A model generated the notes under the pieces. The model did not search any database. It was not told the origin of the DNA and was given only the letters and a program-made list of their open reading frames with translations. A stretch of DNA of 64,000 bases, taken from sequence record DRR723986_833; one strand, 5' to 3'. Of the stretch, positions 29,415-35,337 are shown piece by piece. The position numbers were made by a program, and so were the translations under genes. Positions within the stretch are counted from its first letter, which is position 1; the number at the start of each line of letters is the position of its first letter.

Positions 29415-29458
29415 CTTTCAGGACCTCATTATTGTTGTTTGTGACGTCGATAATTTTA

Positions 29459-29476
29459 ACTTATCATTTGATAAGT
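29459..29476. promoter_or_regulatory. Candidate TetR operator ACTTATCA-TT-TGATAAGT
   Basis: Perfect 8-bp inverted repeat between the divergent flavoprotein and TetR genes. Confidence 0.65.
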
Positions 29477-29503
29477 ATTAATGTCGAGTCAAAAGAGCGC
29501 CCC

Positions 29504-30109
29504 ATGGCTAAGCCGTCATCACGAAATCACATTATTGCTGTTGCCACCGAGCTGTTTGCCGAGCGCGGTCTGTCGGTGTCGCTGCGGGAGGTCAATGAGG
29601 CGGCGGGTCTGAGCGCTGCGGCCGTTCACTATCACTTTAAAAACAAGGGGGCGTTGATTGATGCGGTGCTTCGCAGCCGCATGCGACCCAAGGCCGAGCG
29701 AGAAGGGCAGCTACGACAATTGGCCACCGCGCCCAAGGTCACCATCGACGATATTGTTCGGACCTTGCTTGCGCCGCTGCGCGAGGTGTTGTCGGAAGAC
29801 GCCATCGCGGGGCGGCAGTATGCCAGGGTGATTGCCCGGGTGTACGCCGAGCAGTCGGAAGAGCTTCCCTTGCTGGATGAATTCCTGTCGCCAGCCAATG
29901 CGCTGATTGCCATGCTCGCGCAACAGCGCCCAGATCTGTCATTGCTGCAGTGCCGACTCCGCTATGGCTTCGCTGTGGAAGCGATGCTCAACACACTGTC
30001 TTGCGTACACTTCCCCAGCCCCTTTGGTGGTGATGAGGTGGCGGACGATATGGCCATGTTGTTTGATGAATTGCAGCAGTTTTTGGTGGCGGGTTTGTCG
30101 GCGCCATAG
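29504..30109 (+). CDS. TetR family regulator (PsrA-like C-terminus)
   Basis: A.ELFAERG..VSLRE....AG...AAVHYHF..K; ATG 29504. Confidence 0.88.
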   Translation: MAKPSSRNHIIAVATELFAERGLSVSLREVNEAAGLSAAAVHYHFKNKGALIDAVLRSRMRPKAEREGQLRQLATAPKVTIDDIVRTLLAPLREVLSEDAIAGRQYARVIARVYAEQSEELPLLDEFLSPANALIAMLAQQRPDLSLLQCRLRYGFAVEAMLNTLSCVHFPSPFGGDEVADDMAMLFDELQQFLVAGLSAP

Positions 30110-30204
30110 CGGATCTGTGAATTCACGTTCTATTGCGAATAGCCACCACCAAAGCATTCTGTTATTAGTGTCTGGGAGTTTGTTTGCCAGCAAAGGATAG
30201 CGGT

Positions 30205-32463
30205 ATGTCCACCGAGCTAAATCAGCCTTGGTATGAGCGCGCCATTGCCGGAGTAGATCGCCGGCATTTCGTCAATAACAGTCAAGCTGACCTGGTCGTC
30301 GGGCGCAGCATTCCCCCAAAAGACCTGGTTGCCCGCAGCTTAGCCTTGCTCACCCTGCCGGAAAAGGCCCGCGTGCTTCATCTGGGGGCGGGTGTGGGAT
30401 ATGCCACGGCGGTGTTGGCCCAGATTGCCGATCGCGTGATTGCTATCGAAAGCAATCCTGCGCTGGCCGAGATTGCTAAACAGAAGTTGGCCGCGTTAGA
30501 TGCGAGCAATGTTGAACTGCGCGTTGGCGACGCCAGTGCCGGGGCACCTGAGGACGGCCCTTTTGATGTAATTTGGGTGTCGACGCCGGCGATTACGGAA
30601 CGTGAATCCCTGTGGGAGCAGCTCGCTGAGCGCGGCCAGTTTCTCTGCATGGAAATGGGTGAAGCCTCGCGGTTGGTGCTGGTGAAGTACCAGAACCGGG
30701 GACATCATAAAATCGCGCGCACCGAACATGGCTATGTCGATATCGCTCCGACGGAAGACCAGATATTTGTCGAGCTCGGCATGGTAACGCCTGAGGTGCT
30801 GGCACAGGCGAGGGCGCAGGCGGAAAAAAATAACAGCTTGATTGTCGATGAAATCAGCAAGCTGCAACACCTTGATGAATTAAAGCTATATCGCTCAATG
30901 GCTAAGCAGTGTGGCCTGCCGTTGCAAAGCATGGAGCAACTGCTCAGTAAAGTTGATCCCCGGGTTTTTTCGCGGTTTTCACAGGCATTTCTGGATAATT
31001 TGCAGGCCATTCCCCTGTGTGTTGAGCGCGGGCGTTTGCTGGTTGCCTGCACACGGCCAGGCACCTCGATGCGCGAAATTCAGCTGGTTTTTCCCGAGTT
31101 AAAAATCGAGAAAATACTGGTTACCCCCGTTGATTATCGACGCTTGTGGAGCTCGCTAACACGCGGCGCGAAAGGGGGGGAAGATGCTGGTGAGCAAGAA
31201 CGACCGTCTGACGACAAGACCGATAAAGACCTACTGGACAGCGAGACCGGTGAACCTGATGCGCGCCTGGTCGCCGTCTATGAGGCGCTGCTGCTTGACG
31301 CTGTCGCGGACCGCGCCAGTGATATTCACTTAGAAAAATACCGAGACCGGGTGCGGGTACGGCTGCGGGTGGACGGCGAGTTGCGTGATTTGCACCACTA
31401 CCAGATTAGTGCTGCGGGCTATCGCGGTTTAGTCAATGTGGTGAAACTTCGCGCCGAAATGAACATTGCCGAGCGGCGTTTGCCCCAGGGCGGTCGGTCG
31501 CAGGTGCGGGTAGGGGACGCGCGTTTCGATTTGCGGGTTCAGGTGCAGCCCTCGCTGCACGGCGAGCACGTGGTTATCCGTTTGCTGCCGCAAAATTCGC
31601 CGCTGATCAGCATCGACAGATTGGGGATGTCGCCGCTGGTGGCAGGGCACTATCGCCGCTTGCTGAACAACCCCGCAGGTTTGGTGTTGGTGGTGGGGCC
31701 AACCGGGTCGGGTAAAAGCACCACCTTAAATGCCGGCCTGCAGATGCTTGCCGACGATGCGCGGCGAAAAGTCATTACCGTGGAAGACCCCATCGAGTAC
31801 TCCATTGACGACATTCAGCAGACGCGTGTGCGGCCCGAGATTGGTTTCAGTTTCGCCGATGCGATGCGCTCCTTTGTGCGTCAGGATCCCGATGTCATTT
31901 TGGTGGGAGAAATTCGCGACCACGAGACGGCGCTGGAGTCGATACGCGCTTCGCAGACGGGGCATGTTGTCCTGTCCACACTGCATTGCAACGATGCCAT
32001 TGATGCCGTTCAGCGTTTATTTGATCTCAATGTGCACCCCAACTCGCTGGCAAGCGAGTTGCTCGCAGTGATTGCCCAGCGCCTGGCGAAACGTATTTGC
32101 CCGCATTGTAAATACGAGGCGGAGCCCGAGCCGGACATACTCAAGGAACTCTTTCCCGGCGACGCGCCCAAGCACTTTCGTAGCTACAAAGGCAAAGGTT
32201 GTGAGCGCTGTCATGGCAGTGGCACGCACGGGCGGGTGGCAGTGGTCGAGTATTTACAACTGAACGCTGAGCTGCGCGACAGTATTTCCCGCGGTCGTCC
32301 TGTGGGTGAGCTGCGTGCTCAGGCGCTGGATTCAGGGTTGATCACGATGCGTGACTCCGCTCTCGACCACGTAATTGCCGGCAACATCCCTTTGTCTGAA
32401 TTACCCCGTATTTTGCCGGAGGAGCGTATGGCACCGGAGAAGCGCGGCCAGTGGCAACGCTAA
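30205..32463 (+). CDS. Fusion of PIMT/Pcm-like methyltransferase domain, MshEN-like domain and GspE/PilB secretion ATPase
   Basis: N-term VLHLGAGVGY..AVLA, GDA..G.P..GPFDVI, EQL; C-term ASDIHLE, GPTGSGKST, TVEDPIEY, RQDPDVILVGEIRD, TGH.VLSTLH, CPHC...CERC. Confidence 0.85.
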   Translation: MSTELNQPWYERAIAGVDRRHFVNNSQADLVVGRSIPPKDLVARSLALLTLPEKARVLHLGAGVGYATAVLAQIADRVIAIESNPALAEIAKQKLAALDASNVELRVGDASAGAPEDGPFDVIWVSTPAITERESLWEQLAERGQFLCMEMGEASRLVLVKYQNRGHHKIARTEHGYVDIAPTEDQIFVELGMVTPEVLAQARAQAEKNNSLIVDEISKLQHLDELKLYRSMAKQCGLPLQSMEQLLSKVDPRVFSRFSQAFLDNLQAIPLCVERGRLLVACTRPGTSMREIQLVFPELKIEKILVTPVDYRRLWSSLTRGAKGGEDAGEQERPSDDKTDKDLLDSETGEPDARLVAVYEALLLDAVADRASDIHLEKYRDRVRVRLRVDGELRDLHHYQISAAGYRGLVNVVKLRAEMNIAERRLPQGGRSQVRVGDARFDLRVQVQPSLHGEHVVIRLLPQNSPLISIDRLGMSPLVAGHYRRLLNNPAGLVLVVGPTGSGKSTTLNAGLQMLADDARRKVITVEDPIEYSIDDIQQTRVRPEIGFSFADAMRSFVRQDPDVILVGEIRDHETALESIRASQTGHVVLSTLHCNDAIDAVQRLFDLNVHPNSLASELLAVIAQRLAKRICPHCKYEAEPEPDILKELFPGDAPKHFRSYKGKGCERCHGSGTHGRVAVVEYLQLNAELRDSISRGRPVGELRAQALDSGLITMRDSALDHVIAGNIPLSELPRILPEERMAPEKRGQWQR

Positions 32464-32478
32464 TTGCGAGGACCAGCA

Positions 32479-33570
32479 ATGACTGAAAAATCAATTCAAC
32501 GCCCGGCGGCAGAGGATGCCTACCGCGATGAGCTTGCGCTGTTAAAGCAGCGGGATCAGGGGCCGGTGCCGCCCGGTTGGTGCCTGTCTCCCTACGCCGT
32601 TGAGCAATTTATAATGGGAGATGCCGAGTTAGGTATCGAGCGTAAGTTTGTCGCGCCCCAGGCGCTGCTTAGCCGCGTGATTATTTCGTTGGCCACCAAC
32701 CGAGGAGTCATGTTGATTGGCGAGCCGGGCACGGCTAAGTCTTGGTTGTCAGAGCTATTGGCCTGTGCCATCTCTGGCCATTCCAAACTAACGATTCAGG
32801 GCGGTGCGATCTCTGATTACCGCCAGCTACTCTACGATTGGAATCAGGCCATTTTGCGGCGCGATGGCCCGTGTCGTGAGGCCTTGATTCCGGGGCCTAT
32901 TTATCGCGGGATGGCAGCCGGGCAATTGGTGCGCTTTGAGGAATTGGCGCGTTGCCCGCAGGCGGTGCAAGACGCCATCCTATCGGTAATGTCTGAGCGG
33001 CAAATGCAGATTCCCGAACTGGAAGGAGAGGATGCGACGCTCTATGCGCGCGAGGGTTTCAATATTATCGCCAGCTCTAACTCTCTGGATCGCGGCCTGT
33101 TTGATATGAGTGCGGCACTGAAACGCCGGATGAATTTTGAGACCATCGCGGCGATTAATGACCTTGCCGATGAAATGGATGTTGTCCAGCGCGAGGCGGG
33201 GAAATTACTTCGCGGCAGTGGTGTCTCGATGGATATCGAGCCGATGATCGTCGAGATGCTGGTAACGGTATTTCACGAACTTCGCAACGGTCAAACTCTG
33301 AGTGGCCGCAGTACTGACCGTCTCGCGGCGGCGGTAATGTCCACCGCGGAAGCGGTTTCGGTGTTGCATGCAATGGCGGTATACGCCTATTACTACCGCG
33401 ATGGTGTTATGCAACCAGCCGACTTGATCCACTTCCTGCTGGGCGCGGCGCTAAAGGACAATCCGCAAGACCGGCGGCGCGTGCGCCATTACTTCGAAAC
33501 AGAAGTGGTGAACAAGCAGGGCAGTCACTGGCAGGCGCTGTATGAACAGCGCCATTTACTAAAAGATTGA
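32479..33570 (+). CDS. MoxR-family AAA+ ATPase, YehL-like
   Basis: RP.AE..Y..EL..L, P.GW.LSP, Walker A GEPGTAKSWLSE, FEELARC, DRG..DMS.ALKRR, MSTAEAVSV. Confidence 0.85.
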   Translation: MTEKSIQRPAAEDAYRDELALLKQRDQGPVPPGWCLSPYAVEQFIMGDAELGIERKFVAPQALLSRVIISLATNRGVMLIGEPGTAKSWLSELLACAISGHSKLTIQGGAISDYRQLLYDWNQAILRRDGPCREALIPGPIYRGMAAGQLVRFEELARCPQAVQDAILSVMSERQMQIPELEGEDATLYAREGFNIIASSNSLDRGLFDMSAALKRRMNFETIAAINDLADEMDVVQREAGKLLRGSGVSMDIEPMIVEMLVTVFHELRNGQTLSGRSTDRLAAAVMSTAEAVSVLHAMAVYAYYYRDGVMQPADLIHFLLGAALKDNPQDRRRVRHYFETEVVNKQGSHWQALYEQRHLLKD

Positions 33571-33616
33571 TCGAGCCACCACCGCTCACCGCTCCGGTGC
33601 TTGGTGGCGGCAGCGT

Positions 33617-35296
33617 TTAGCTTGCTTTTAGCTGCTCGGCATATTGGCTTTGCGCTGCGGCGTTGATAACGGCCTGTAAGGACGCACTCACCACATCGTT
33701 GTTCACCGCCACGCCGATATAGCGCTGCTTGTTAATGCTCAGCAACACGTAGGCTATCGCTTCTGACGCAGTGCCTGATTTCAGGGCGTGCTCGCTGTAG
33801 TCAATCACTTCCACCGCGTCGCCATAGCGCTGTTGCCAGGCATCGGTCAGAGCACTGATCGCGCCATCGCCTTCACCTTCTAGGGAAACCGCTTGGCCGT
33901 TGATATGGGTGACCAGCTTGAGCCGGTCGTGACCGTGATGACTGGCATTGTCCTGACTAATGGAGAAATTCTGCAGTGACTGCTGCCCCTCAGGCTGAAG
34001 GTAACTGGCGGCGAAGACCGACCAGATCTCGGCTGCACTGAGCTCTCCCGATTGGGCCTCGGCTTCGGCCTGTACTTTTCGGCTGGCGTCAATTTGCAGC
34101 CAGCGCGGCATATGCAGGCCGTAGTCGTTCTCAAGCACCCAGGCGACACCGCCCTTGCCAGACTGGCTGTTAATCCGTATCACAGCCTCGTAGTTGCGAC
34201 CCAGGTCAGCCGGATCAATAGGCAAGTAGGCAACGTCCCACTGAGCATCTTTGTCCTGCTGGGCGAGGCATTTTTTTATCGCATCTTGATGGCTGCCCGA
34301 GAACGCCGTGAACACCAACTCGCCGGCGTAAGGGTGGCGGGGGTGCAAGGGAATCGCTGTGCAGTGCTCAACCACCGAGATGATTTCGTCCATATCGGAG
34401 AGGTTCAGCTTGGGGTCAATGCCCTGGCTATACAGATTCATCGCCATAGTGACGACATCCATATTGCCGGTGCGCTCGCCATTGCCAAGCAAGGTGCCCT
34501 CAATGCGGTCGGCGCCTGCCATCAATGCCAGTTCGGCAGCCGCAACCCCGCAGCCGCGATCATTGTGAGTATGAATCGACACCCGGTAGTCTGCGCGGTA
34601 CTGACTGTGGCGGCAGAAGTACTCGACCTGGTCGGCGAATACATTGGGAGTGGCGCATTCTACGGTCGCGGGCAAATTGACGATGAGAGGTTTACCACTG
34701 TCACGCCACTGAGCGATAACCGCATCGCAGACCTCAACGGCGTAGTCGACTTCGGTACTGCTAAAACTTTCGGGTGAGTATTGAAAGGTCCACTGGGTTT
34801 GCGGGTAGCGCTCAGCGTATTCCCGAACCCATTTCGCCCCTTGAACGGCGATGGCTGTAATACCCGCTTTGTCGAGACCAAATACCCGTTCGCGCTGCAC
34901 GGGGCTGGTGGAGTTGTAAACATGGACAATGGCGCGCTTGGCACCCTCCAATGCTTCGAAGCTGCGAGCAATCAAGCTCTCGCGCGCCTGCACCAAAATT
35001 TGGATAGTGACGTCGTCAGGTATACGTTGCCCCTCTATCAAGGCGCGTACAAAGTCGAAATCGGGCTGGGATGCAGAGGGAAAGCCAACTTCAATTTCCT
35101 TAAAACCGAGCTTGACCAGCAAGTCCCACATACGCAGTTTTTGTTGCACGGTCATCGGTTCAACCAGGGCTTGGTTGCCATCGCGCAGATCAACTGAACA
35201 CCAATCGGGGGCGCGATCGATAACGCGGCTTGGCCACTGTCGATCATCTAAGGCGATGGTGGGGGTGGGGCGGTATTTGCTGTGGTCAAAAGTCAT
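33617..35296 (-). CDS. leuA: 2-isopropylmalate synthase (LeuA type 2)
   Basis: WCSVDLRDGNQAL, YSPESF, NLPATVE, HTHNDRG, GNGERTGN, AFSGSHQDAI, NSQSGKGG. Confidence 0.95.
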   Translation of the reverse strand: MTFDHSKYRPTPTIALDDRQWPSRVIDRAPDWCSVDLRDGNQALVEPMTVQQKLRMWDLLVKLGFKEIEVGFPSASQPDFDFVRALIEGQRIPDDVTIQILVQARESLIARSFEALEGAKRAIVHVYNSTSPVQRERVFGLDKAGITAIAVQGAKWVREYAERYPQTQWTFQYSPESFSSTEVDYAVEVCDAVIAQWRDSGKPLIVNLPATVECATPNVFADQVEYFCRHSQYRADYRVSIHTHNDRGCGVAAAELALMAGADRIEGTLLGNGERTGNMDVVTMAMNLYSQGIDPKLNLSDMDEIISVVEHCTAIPLHPRHPYAGELVFTAFSGSHQDAIKKCLAQQDKDAQWDVAYLPIDPADLGRNYEAVIRINSQSGKGGVAWVLENDYGLHMPRWLQIDASRKVQAEAEAQSGELSAAEIWSVFAASYLQPEGQQSLQNFSISQDNASHHGHDRLKLVTHINGQAVSLEGEGDGAISALTDAWQQRYGDAVEVIDYSEHALKSGTASEAIAYVLLSINKQRYIGVAVNNDVVSASLQAVINAAAQSQYAEQLKAS

Positions 35297-35337
35297 GTCA
35301 GTTCCTGTCGTGAGGCTTGGCCTCATAGTTGTTTTTT

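Follow-up and report, generated by a model that had tools for sequence, protein, structure and literature searches.

In a stretch of 64,000 nucleotides from sequence record DRR723986_833, the whole of which we call the window, two adjacent genes on one strand, here gene A and gene B, encode a PilB/GspE-type motor ATPase fused to a PIMT-like methyltransferase domain, and a MoxR ATPase of the YehL subfamily. The A-B pair is a conserved, patchily distributed two-gene unit, and we found no paper that describes it. Our analysis establishes the domain make-up of the two proteins, their intact motifs, their tight linkage, a single origin of the pairing and an accessory distribution. The best explanation is that A and B form one operon and one functional unit. 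The parts of the pair are as follows.

30205..32463, plus strand: gene A, ATG to stop, 752 aa (open reading frame list and translation); fusion of a PIMT-like methyltransferase, an N1 domain and a PilB/GspE-type ATPase (Pfam, full-length homologs)
30226..30738, plus strand: PIMT-like S-adenosylmethionine (SAM) methyltransferase domain, residues 8-178 (Pfam PCMT, 1.9e-22, over residues 13-173)
30760..31179, plus strand: N1 (GSPII/MshEN-like) domain, residues 186-325 (Pfam MshEN, 6e-07, over residues 238-322)
31180..31260, plus strand: acidic, variable, disordered linker, residues 326-352 (model confidence, low identity)
31261..32439, plus strand: N2 and C-terminal ATPase domains, residues 353-745 (Pfam T2SSE, 2.9e-108, over residues 353-733)
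31696-31719, plus strand: Walker A motif of gene A, GPTGSGKS (sequence)
32464-32478: spacer between A and B, 15 nt (sequence read)
32468..32472, plus strand: GAGGA ribosome-binding site of gene B, within the A-B spacer (sequence read)
32479..33570, plus strand: gene B, ATG to stop, 363 aa (open reading frame list and translation); YehL-subfamily MoxR AAA+ ATPase (AAA_5, YehL identity, model)
32719-32742, plus strand: Walker A motif of gene B, GEPGTAKS (sequence)

A search of public genomes with B alone returned at least 579 confirmed relatives among 600 candidate stretches, and we kept the best 80. In 62 of these 80 loci the gene immediately upstream of B is an A homolog, so that the pairing is far beyond chance. 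When A was the query, 7 of the 28 loci found carried the pairing with YehL. The pair is full-length in 55 of the 62 loci and incomplete in seven: A is cut by a contig end in L035, L041, L065 and L085, and B in L102, while A is split or truncated in the other two, both from metagenome-assembled genomes (MAGs). In one of these A occupies two overlapping frames that break at the linker (L067:851-3119), and in the other it is reduced to its last ~110 residues (L086:4667-4996). A third MAG shows a frame change close to the C-terminus of A (L087:5747-7965). These damaged copies may reflect real decay or sequencing error, which cannot be told apart here. In all 55 full-length pairs the estimated gap between the genes is between -6 and 47 nt (median 17), and the identities of A and of B to the window copies rise and fall together (Pearson 0.90, n=55, in a set whose members are kin and not independent).

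The carriers include at least ten named genera, among them Zhongshania, Spongiibacter, Porticoccus, Marinobacter, Halioglobus and Wenzhouxiangella, as well as Alishewanella, Alkalimonas, Arsukibacterium, Pseudomonas abyssi/Halopseudomonas and several gammaproteobacterial MAGs. MAGs provisionally binned as Geobacter carry the pair too. We clustered the neighbouring genes, five open reading frames per side, at 63 loci and found no third conserved gene; the largest cluster covered 23 of the 63 loci and was mostly Marinobacter synteny, and the Pfam families of the neighbours are mutually unrelated (VIT1, permease, Met-zincin, redoxin, PLD, aminotransferase, histidine kinase). The proposal of the initial annotation that these genes form a stand-alone unit is borne out, the unit is conserved, and the check that it suggested, for a YehL-like neighbour conserved across genera, came out positive.

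Full-length homologs of gene A are 52-99% identical to it and have the identical set of Pfam domains. Among 45 sequences the Walker A motif (G498-K504), the Asp box (E527/D528/E531), the Walker B motif (D561-D572) and the His box (H587/H594) are invariant, as are the four cysteines C632/C635/C666/C669, which correspond to the tetracysteine motif that binds zinc in the C-terminal domain of PilB and GspE. With its catalytic motifs and these cysteines unchanged, the motor looks active, and by its motifs gene A looks to be a catalytically competent motor ATPase. Judged from its sequence, it is a member of the PilB/GspE superfamily (PF00437) that belongs to a separate clade and differs from ordinary PilB and GspE; compared with the paralogs resident in the nearest genome, its ATPase part shares 40-41% identity with PilB and GspE and 33% with a third one.

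Conservation is uneven along gene A. Median identity to the window copy, across 44 homologs, is 76% for the C-terminal domain, 69% for N2, 42% for N1, 38% for the methyltransferase domain, which is the least conserved folded part, and 21% for the linker. The AlphaFold model of the whole protein is poor (mean predicted local distance difference test score, pLDDT, of 66; predicted template modelling score, pTM, of 0.34), is confident for the methyltransferase domain only and falls below a pLDDT of 50 over residues 322-351, at the linker. Because of these scores we left the whole-protein model out of the fold searches. An ESM Atlas search with gene A returned solely proteins of its own kind, namely PCMT and PCMT+MshEN clusters. 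In GspE and PilB, the relatives of gene A, the N1 domain docks onto parts of the machine. The MshEN domain binds cyclic di-GMP through a tandem 24-residue motif, RLGxx(L/V/I)(L/V/I)xxG(L/V/I)(L/V/I)xxxxLxxxLxxQ (PMC5013675). The strict form of this motif occurs in none of the 45 sequences of the gene A family, and a relaxed form in one, a planctomycete, in a single copy.

The closest relatives of A that have no methyltransferase domain belong to Polyangia and Gemmatimonadales (L008:5908-13635, L009, L010:992-7701) and are 50-54% identical. They lie 2-2.5 kb from MoxR-type AAA_5 and VWA_CoxE genes or from a CbbQ_C+VWA protein, a weak hint; the Polyangia loci hold two tandem T2SSE genes. We considered and rejected a reading of the Polyangia loci L008 and L009 as a single operon of an A-like ATPase, AAA_5 and VWA_CoxE: the intervening open reading frames proved spurious, and the A relatives and the MoxR/VWA genes are not one operon because an opposite-strand MFS gene lies between them.

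The front of gene A is of PIMT descent. The best matches of the domain among solved structures are PIMTs (4l7v, 2.8e-19; 3lbf, 5.8e-15), its model is confident (pLDDT 85-93), and in the family the SAM loop G61-x-G63-x-G65-Y66 never varies and E82 hardly does; the domain probably binds SAM. Such a domain could be taken as a sensor or repair enzyme for isoaspartate damage that is coupled to the two ATPases, and the descent and the invariant GxGxG loop are what speak for it. In PIMT, the Ser of the GQTISQP motif contacts the isoaspartyl carboxyl. Aligned to 4l7v and 3lbf, this motif reads GRSIPPK in the window and G[HR]SIP in the consensus of the family, where an invariant Pro37 occupies the position of that Ser. 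The domain also scores below both pcm equivalog cut-offs (98 against 188 bits and 80 against 159 bits), and each of the four related genomes searched, including the one without the pair, has its own canonical pcm as a separate gene (214-220 bits). To these points can be added the low conservation of the domain given above and the loss of the PFD motif as well in Marinobacter gene A. The replaced motif, the scores and the separate pcm together make it unlikely that the domain is an isoaspartate repair enzyme, and we regard a damage-sensing or repair module as improbable; the idea of a damage-recognising PIMT in protein quality control, which the initial annotation had put forward, is not supported by this comparison. 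The likeness to PIMT and pcm lies in the fold and the SAM-binding motifs, whereas gene A differs in its replaced substrate motif and in the fusion of the domain to an ATPase, the housekeeping pcm being encoded separately. The second-best solved match, for residues 22-149, is also PIMT-like (PDB 8qby chain t, 2e-16) and likewise lacks the TISQP motif, reading GRVLLEP in its place. We take 8qby to be the Paracoccus respiratory complex I, in which case chain t would be an accessory subunit.

Gene B is 51% identical to YehL of E. coli K-12 over 357 aa (E 3e-125), which bears out its designation as YehL-like by the initial annotation. It matches AAA_5 over residues 76-218 (2.1e-27), and its Walker A motif (G81-S88) and the Walker B residues E154/E155 are invariant in 37 sequences. 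The model of gene B is good (pLDDT 90.2, pTM 0.86). From its sequence and this model, we assign gene B to the YehL subfamily, with a MoxR fold; PMC3893208 lists YehL as one of seven MoxR subfamilies. The nearest solved folds are those of CbbQ (6l1q, E 7e-11) and NorQ (9qh4, 9qh9; the NorQ entries run to 9qh9), at a sequence identity of 14-19%. CbbQ and NorQ are MoxR hexamers, each of which remodels one dedicated target complex. They act through a VWA adaptor, as in CbbQ-CbbO and NorQ-NorD, whereas the unit described here has no VWA gene.

The relatives of B that have no A beside them indicate where it came from. Among the best 80 loci, 18 are of this kind, from Myxococcota, Planctomycetota, Verrucomicrobiota and one alphaproteobacterial MAG (45-53% identity), together with L090. 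In the two to which Pfam was applied, L095 and L107, the order is DUF4132(+WGR), AAA_5, DUF5682 and VWA_CoxE, with SWIM also present in L107, which is the gene order of E. coli yehI/yehLMPQ; the others have open reading frames of similar sizes. The pair resembles the E. coli yehI-yehK-yehLMPQ locus in the full-length identity of B to YehL, and relatives of B in Planctomycetota and Verrucomicrobiota sit in operons of the DUF4132 / AAA_5 / DUF5682 / VWA_CoxE / SWIM type. It differs in that its YehL has no YehM, YehP or YehQ adjacent and is partnered by a PilB-type ATPase; genes for YehM/DUF5682, YehP/VWA_CoxE and YehQ/SWIM adjoin none of the 62 PilB-linked loci. In a maximum-likelihood tree of 81 YehL-like proteins, E. 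coli YehL included, a branch with 100/100 support separates 18 YehLs of yeh operons (including that of E. coli) from the 62 PilB-linked ones and the orphan of L090. This single clade of PilB-linked YehLs fits one switch of partner. We also asked of the A family whether it mimics YehM, YehP or YehQ, and rejected the idea, as hhalign against the E. coli proteins gave probabilities of at most 1%. The orphan (L090:7809-9080), a divergent YehL of the PilB-linked clade in a Wenzhouxiangella MAG with no A beside it, is flanked by an MtrB/PioB-type porin gene and by OEP and HlyD/CusB-like efflux genes.

A pair derived in this way might be what is left of a larger yeh or pil locus in decay, or two neighbouring genes with no relation to each other. 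The membership of B in a family whose other members occupy yehI/yehLMPQ-type operons would suit a remnant, as would the few damaged loci (L086 and L067). Against it stand two intact open reading frames in the window, catalytic residues that are invariant in 45 sequences of A and 37 of B, and the occurrence, in many genera, of 55 full-length pairs whose gaps do not exceed 47 nt. By these sequence comparisons a remnant is at odds with the data, and we hold it to be highly improbable. The initial annotation had named a remnant of a known yeh or pil locus as the finding that would overturn its proposal; the intact frames, the invariant motifs and the single YehL clade argue against it.

To place the pair in its surroundings, we list here the features that flank it.

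29432-30109, plus strand: TetR-family gene, upstream of the pair (profile search)
30110..30204, no strand: spacer from the TetR stop to the start of gene A, 95 nt, presumed promoter region
33571..33616, no strand: spacer from gene B to the leuA stop, 46 nt, GC-rich hairpin, possible two-way terminator
33617-35326, minus strand: leuA, convergent, downstream of the pair (NF002991, 848 bits against a cut-off of 455)
30040..33740, no strand: tract that differs from the nearest genome, G001 (L029), which lacks the pair (flank comparison)

The anatomy and coordinates given by the initial annotation, two co-oriented genes 15 bp apart with a TetR gene upstream and a convergent leuA downstream, are correct.

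The pair comes and goes between close relatives. In the nearest genome, G001, the flanks are 97-100% identical to those of the window, and tetR and leuA stand ~115 nt apart with no pair between them. Over the final ~70 nt of tetR and the final ~120 nt of leuA, identity to G001 drops to 78-90%, and the 95-nt spacer upstream of gene A is not related to the corresponding spacer of that genome. This divergence, confined to the ends of tetR and leuA, suggests that the whole tract was replaced allelically by homologous recombination. In G040, which is another species of the genus, the pair stands in the identical context, p450-tetR-FADox-tetR-A-B-leuA-lrp. In six further loci of the genus (L113-L119 except L117) the pair is present and none of those flanking genes lies within ~8 kb; in L117 the only match to a flanking gene nearby is a weak one, to the FAD-oxidoreductase (47%).

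Across the genus of the window, gene B occurs in 9 of 28 genomes, in one of them as a fragment. It occurs in none of the 12 genomes searched from the three other genera of the family, and in 4 of 121 genomes, from 4 of 77 genera, in a sample of the order whose members are at least 90% complete; one of these four matches, at 45% identity, could belong to the yeh-operon class. The tree mixes families, as where Pseudomonas abyssi and Halopseudomonas fall inside a group of Spongiibacteraceae. Patchy presence, varying loci and mixed families point to a pair that is accessory, often lost and sometimes transferred.

What such a unit does can be approached from its parts. Gene A would be a hexameric motor of the PilB/GspE superfamily that keeps an N1 domain of the docking type, and its front would be a SAM-binding methyltransferase domain of PIMT descent from which the motif for isoaspartate recognition has gone. 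Gene B would be a YehL-type MoxR ATPase parted from its usual partners (YehM/DUF5682, YehP/VWA and YehQ/SWIM), and it may serve as a dedicated chaperone that remodels or activates A, as CbbQ and NorQ do for their targets. This presupposes physical contact between A and B, with B acting on A. A could then be an auxiliary or conditional motor, like TfpB, on a type IV filament or type II secretion machine encoded elsewhere, and the methyltransferase domain a SAM-dependent regulatory or modifying module. We tentatively favour this reading, in which the pair is an obligate two-ATPase unit, a MoxR ATPase acts on a specialised PilB-like motor, most likely an auxiliary or conditional motor of a resident machine, and the SAM-binding domain provides input or modification.

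Two known cases come near to it. In Acinetobacter baylyi, TfpB is a second type IV pilus extension ATPase beside PilB (PMC8213720); like gene A, it is of the PilB family, phylogenetically distinct from the housekeeping PilB and not encoded next to a platform of its own, and it works on the resident pilus machine. TfpB differs in its pilus role, which for gene A is putative, and gene A is set apart by its PIMT-like domain and by the YehL-type MoxR gene downstream. Thaumarchaeal type IV pilus loci hold linked pairs of vWA and MoxR/GvpN genes that are predicted regulators (PMC4858521), and so likewise place a MoxR-type ATPase in genomic association with the ATPase system of a type IV filament. 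Those pairs are archaeal, have a vWA member and sit within complete pilus loci, whereas the A-B pair is bacterial and has neither a vWA gene nor a pilus locus. A link to filaments is also favoured by the retention of the N1 domain and by the one planctomycete fusion of the A type (L007), which lacks a neighbouring YehL and has two PilT-like genes on the opposite strand at a distance of ~1.8 kb; when relatives of this fusion were searched for, only L007 itself came up.

Several observations weigh against a motor of this kind served by gene B. No platform, pilin or secretin gene adjoins the pair, none recurs near it in the 63 clustered loci, and tblastx of the 64-kb window with the PilB-PilC, GspE-GspF and third-paralog loci of the nearest genome as queries revealed no platform gene. 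This search gave 33 matches, of which 24 fall inside gene A and the other 9 are fragments of 12-62 aa with at most 27.6 bits, in keeping with the earlier statement that no platform gene is adjacent. The number of T2SSF genes in the genus is 6-10 in the nine genomes with the pair and 6-12 in the 19 without it. Neither the surroundings of the pair nor the T2SSF counts thus reveal a dedicated platform, and the use of a resident one is assumed. Gene A falls short of the NCBIfam equivalog cut-offs for PilB (TIGR02538, 417 against 675 bits), GspE (TIGR02533, 412 against 630 bits) and TfpB itself (NF053534, 351 against 850 bits). On the side of gene B, the unit lacks a VWA protein, the usual partner of a MoxR ATPase, and none of five pair-bearing genomes showed DUF5682; VWA_CoxE genes are present at other places in pair-bearing genomes, two per genome. 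Only 4 positions are class-specific between gene B and the YehLs of yeh operons, and therefore no remodelled binding surface of B is evident. Four RNA-library runs, searched as assembled contigs, gave short contigs on gene A and on gene B, a weak sign of expression for which DNA carry-over is a possible source, and none of these contigs bridges the A-B junction; as they are short and none crosses the junction, a single transcript cannot be shown from them.

The same observations can be turned towards a self-contained cytoplasmic machine of two motors, unrelated to filaments, in which a platform-free PilB-type hexamer works with the YehL MoxR ATPase and the methyltransferase. Its target could be a soluble protein or a nucleic acid, and its role could be stress-related, regulatory or one in biological conflict. 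Such a machine would be consistent with the lack of any platform that is adjacent to the pair or co-varies with it, with the patchy accessory distribution in the genus, family and order, with presence and absence between near-identical strains, with the different loci that the pair occupies within one genus and a tree placement that crosses families, and with the absence of the canonical cyclic di-GMP input of MshEN-type N1 domains. It has to contend with the N1 domain that A keeps, which in relatives docks to machine parts, and with the lack of any effector-like domain in gene A or gene B.

A defence screen of A, B and 137 neighbouring open reading frames with PADLOC 2.0 gives no help to a conflict role either. 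Among the 137 neighbours there were four matches at 1e-10 (two PLD-like, one ABC ATPase and one split gene A), and therefore no defence island surrounds the pair; A and B themselves yield only generic matches (mad2 on the methyltransferase, mad3 and mad8 on the P-loops). We have accordingly set aside an anti-phage defence reading, for which generic matches and a context without a defence island offer no support. On balance we regard a platform-free cytoplasmic machine as possible though doubtful, and nearly as likely as the auxiliary motor that we favour. The fuller claim, that a PilB-type hexameric motor off any envelope platform has joined with a YehL MoxR ATPase and with a protein-carboxyl methyltransferase domain put to new use to form a new, self-contained, horizontally mobile cytoplasmic machine, strikes us as rather unlikely.

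We note some further features of the locus and its counterparts. A consensus scan found no sigma-70-like site in the presumed promoter region (30110..30204), and called no terminator in the spacer downstream of gene B (33571..33616). The RNA fold of 33560-33630 has an energy of -26.5 kcal/mol (z -2.4), which 4 of 200 shuffles equalled. The 10-mer AGCCACCACC stands at 30141-30150 and 33574-33583, its only two copies in the 64-kb window, one in each flanking spacer. We considered this direct repeat as the scar of a mobile element and rejected it: repeats of at least 10 nt flank the pair in 3 of 56 loci, each of them different, for the window's own repeat 4 of 200 shuffles reach 10 nt, and because other loci show no comparable repeat it is probably a chance occurrence. 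At many Marinobacter loci (for example L042:4715-5665 and L043:4850-5656), ParA-like, CheW and DUF2802 genes precede the pair in the same orientation, a placement at the end of a chemotaxis/flagellar cluster. In four loci of Halieaceae and Alteromonadaceae (L056:3271-4530, L075:304-1566, L078:4299-5594 and L080:4216-5613), the gene immediately upstream of the pair encodes a related cytochrome P450 and is co-oriented with it, at a gap of ~110-190 nt; the window has its P450 gene (25837-27291) four genes upstream, which brings the total to 5 of 63 loci. This association could reflect either long-standing synteny or a loose tie in function.

Our literature search, in which supplements were outside the scope, found no paper on a PCMT-PilB fusion architecture and none on the function of yehLMPQ, and the eLife 2020 paper on MoxR-vWA conflict systems contains no occurrence of YehL, DUF4132 or PilB. 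As far as we know, PilB/GspE ATPases are thought to act only on a PilC/GspF platform, and MoxR ATPases to act with a VWA partner. The A-B pair breaks both rules in one unit, which many genera of marine gammaproteobacteria keep intact. Should A prove to be an auxiliary pilus or secretion motor, the pair would represent a new regulation of type IV filaments, by way of a dedicated AAA+ chaperone and a SAM-binding input domain. If the unit is platform-free, it would be a new kind of machine, the first in which a secretion ATPase works free of a platform, and would give a first functional handle on the orphan YehL subfamily. On either reading, the pair offers a simple two-component system in which to test the uncharacterised YehL subfamily, which includes a y-gene of E. 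coli.

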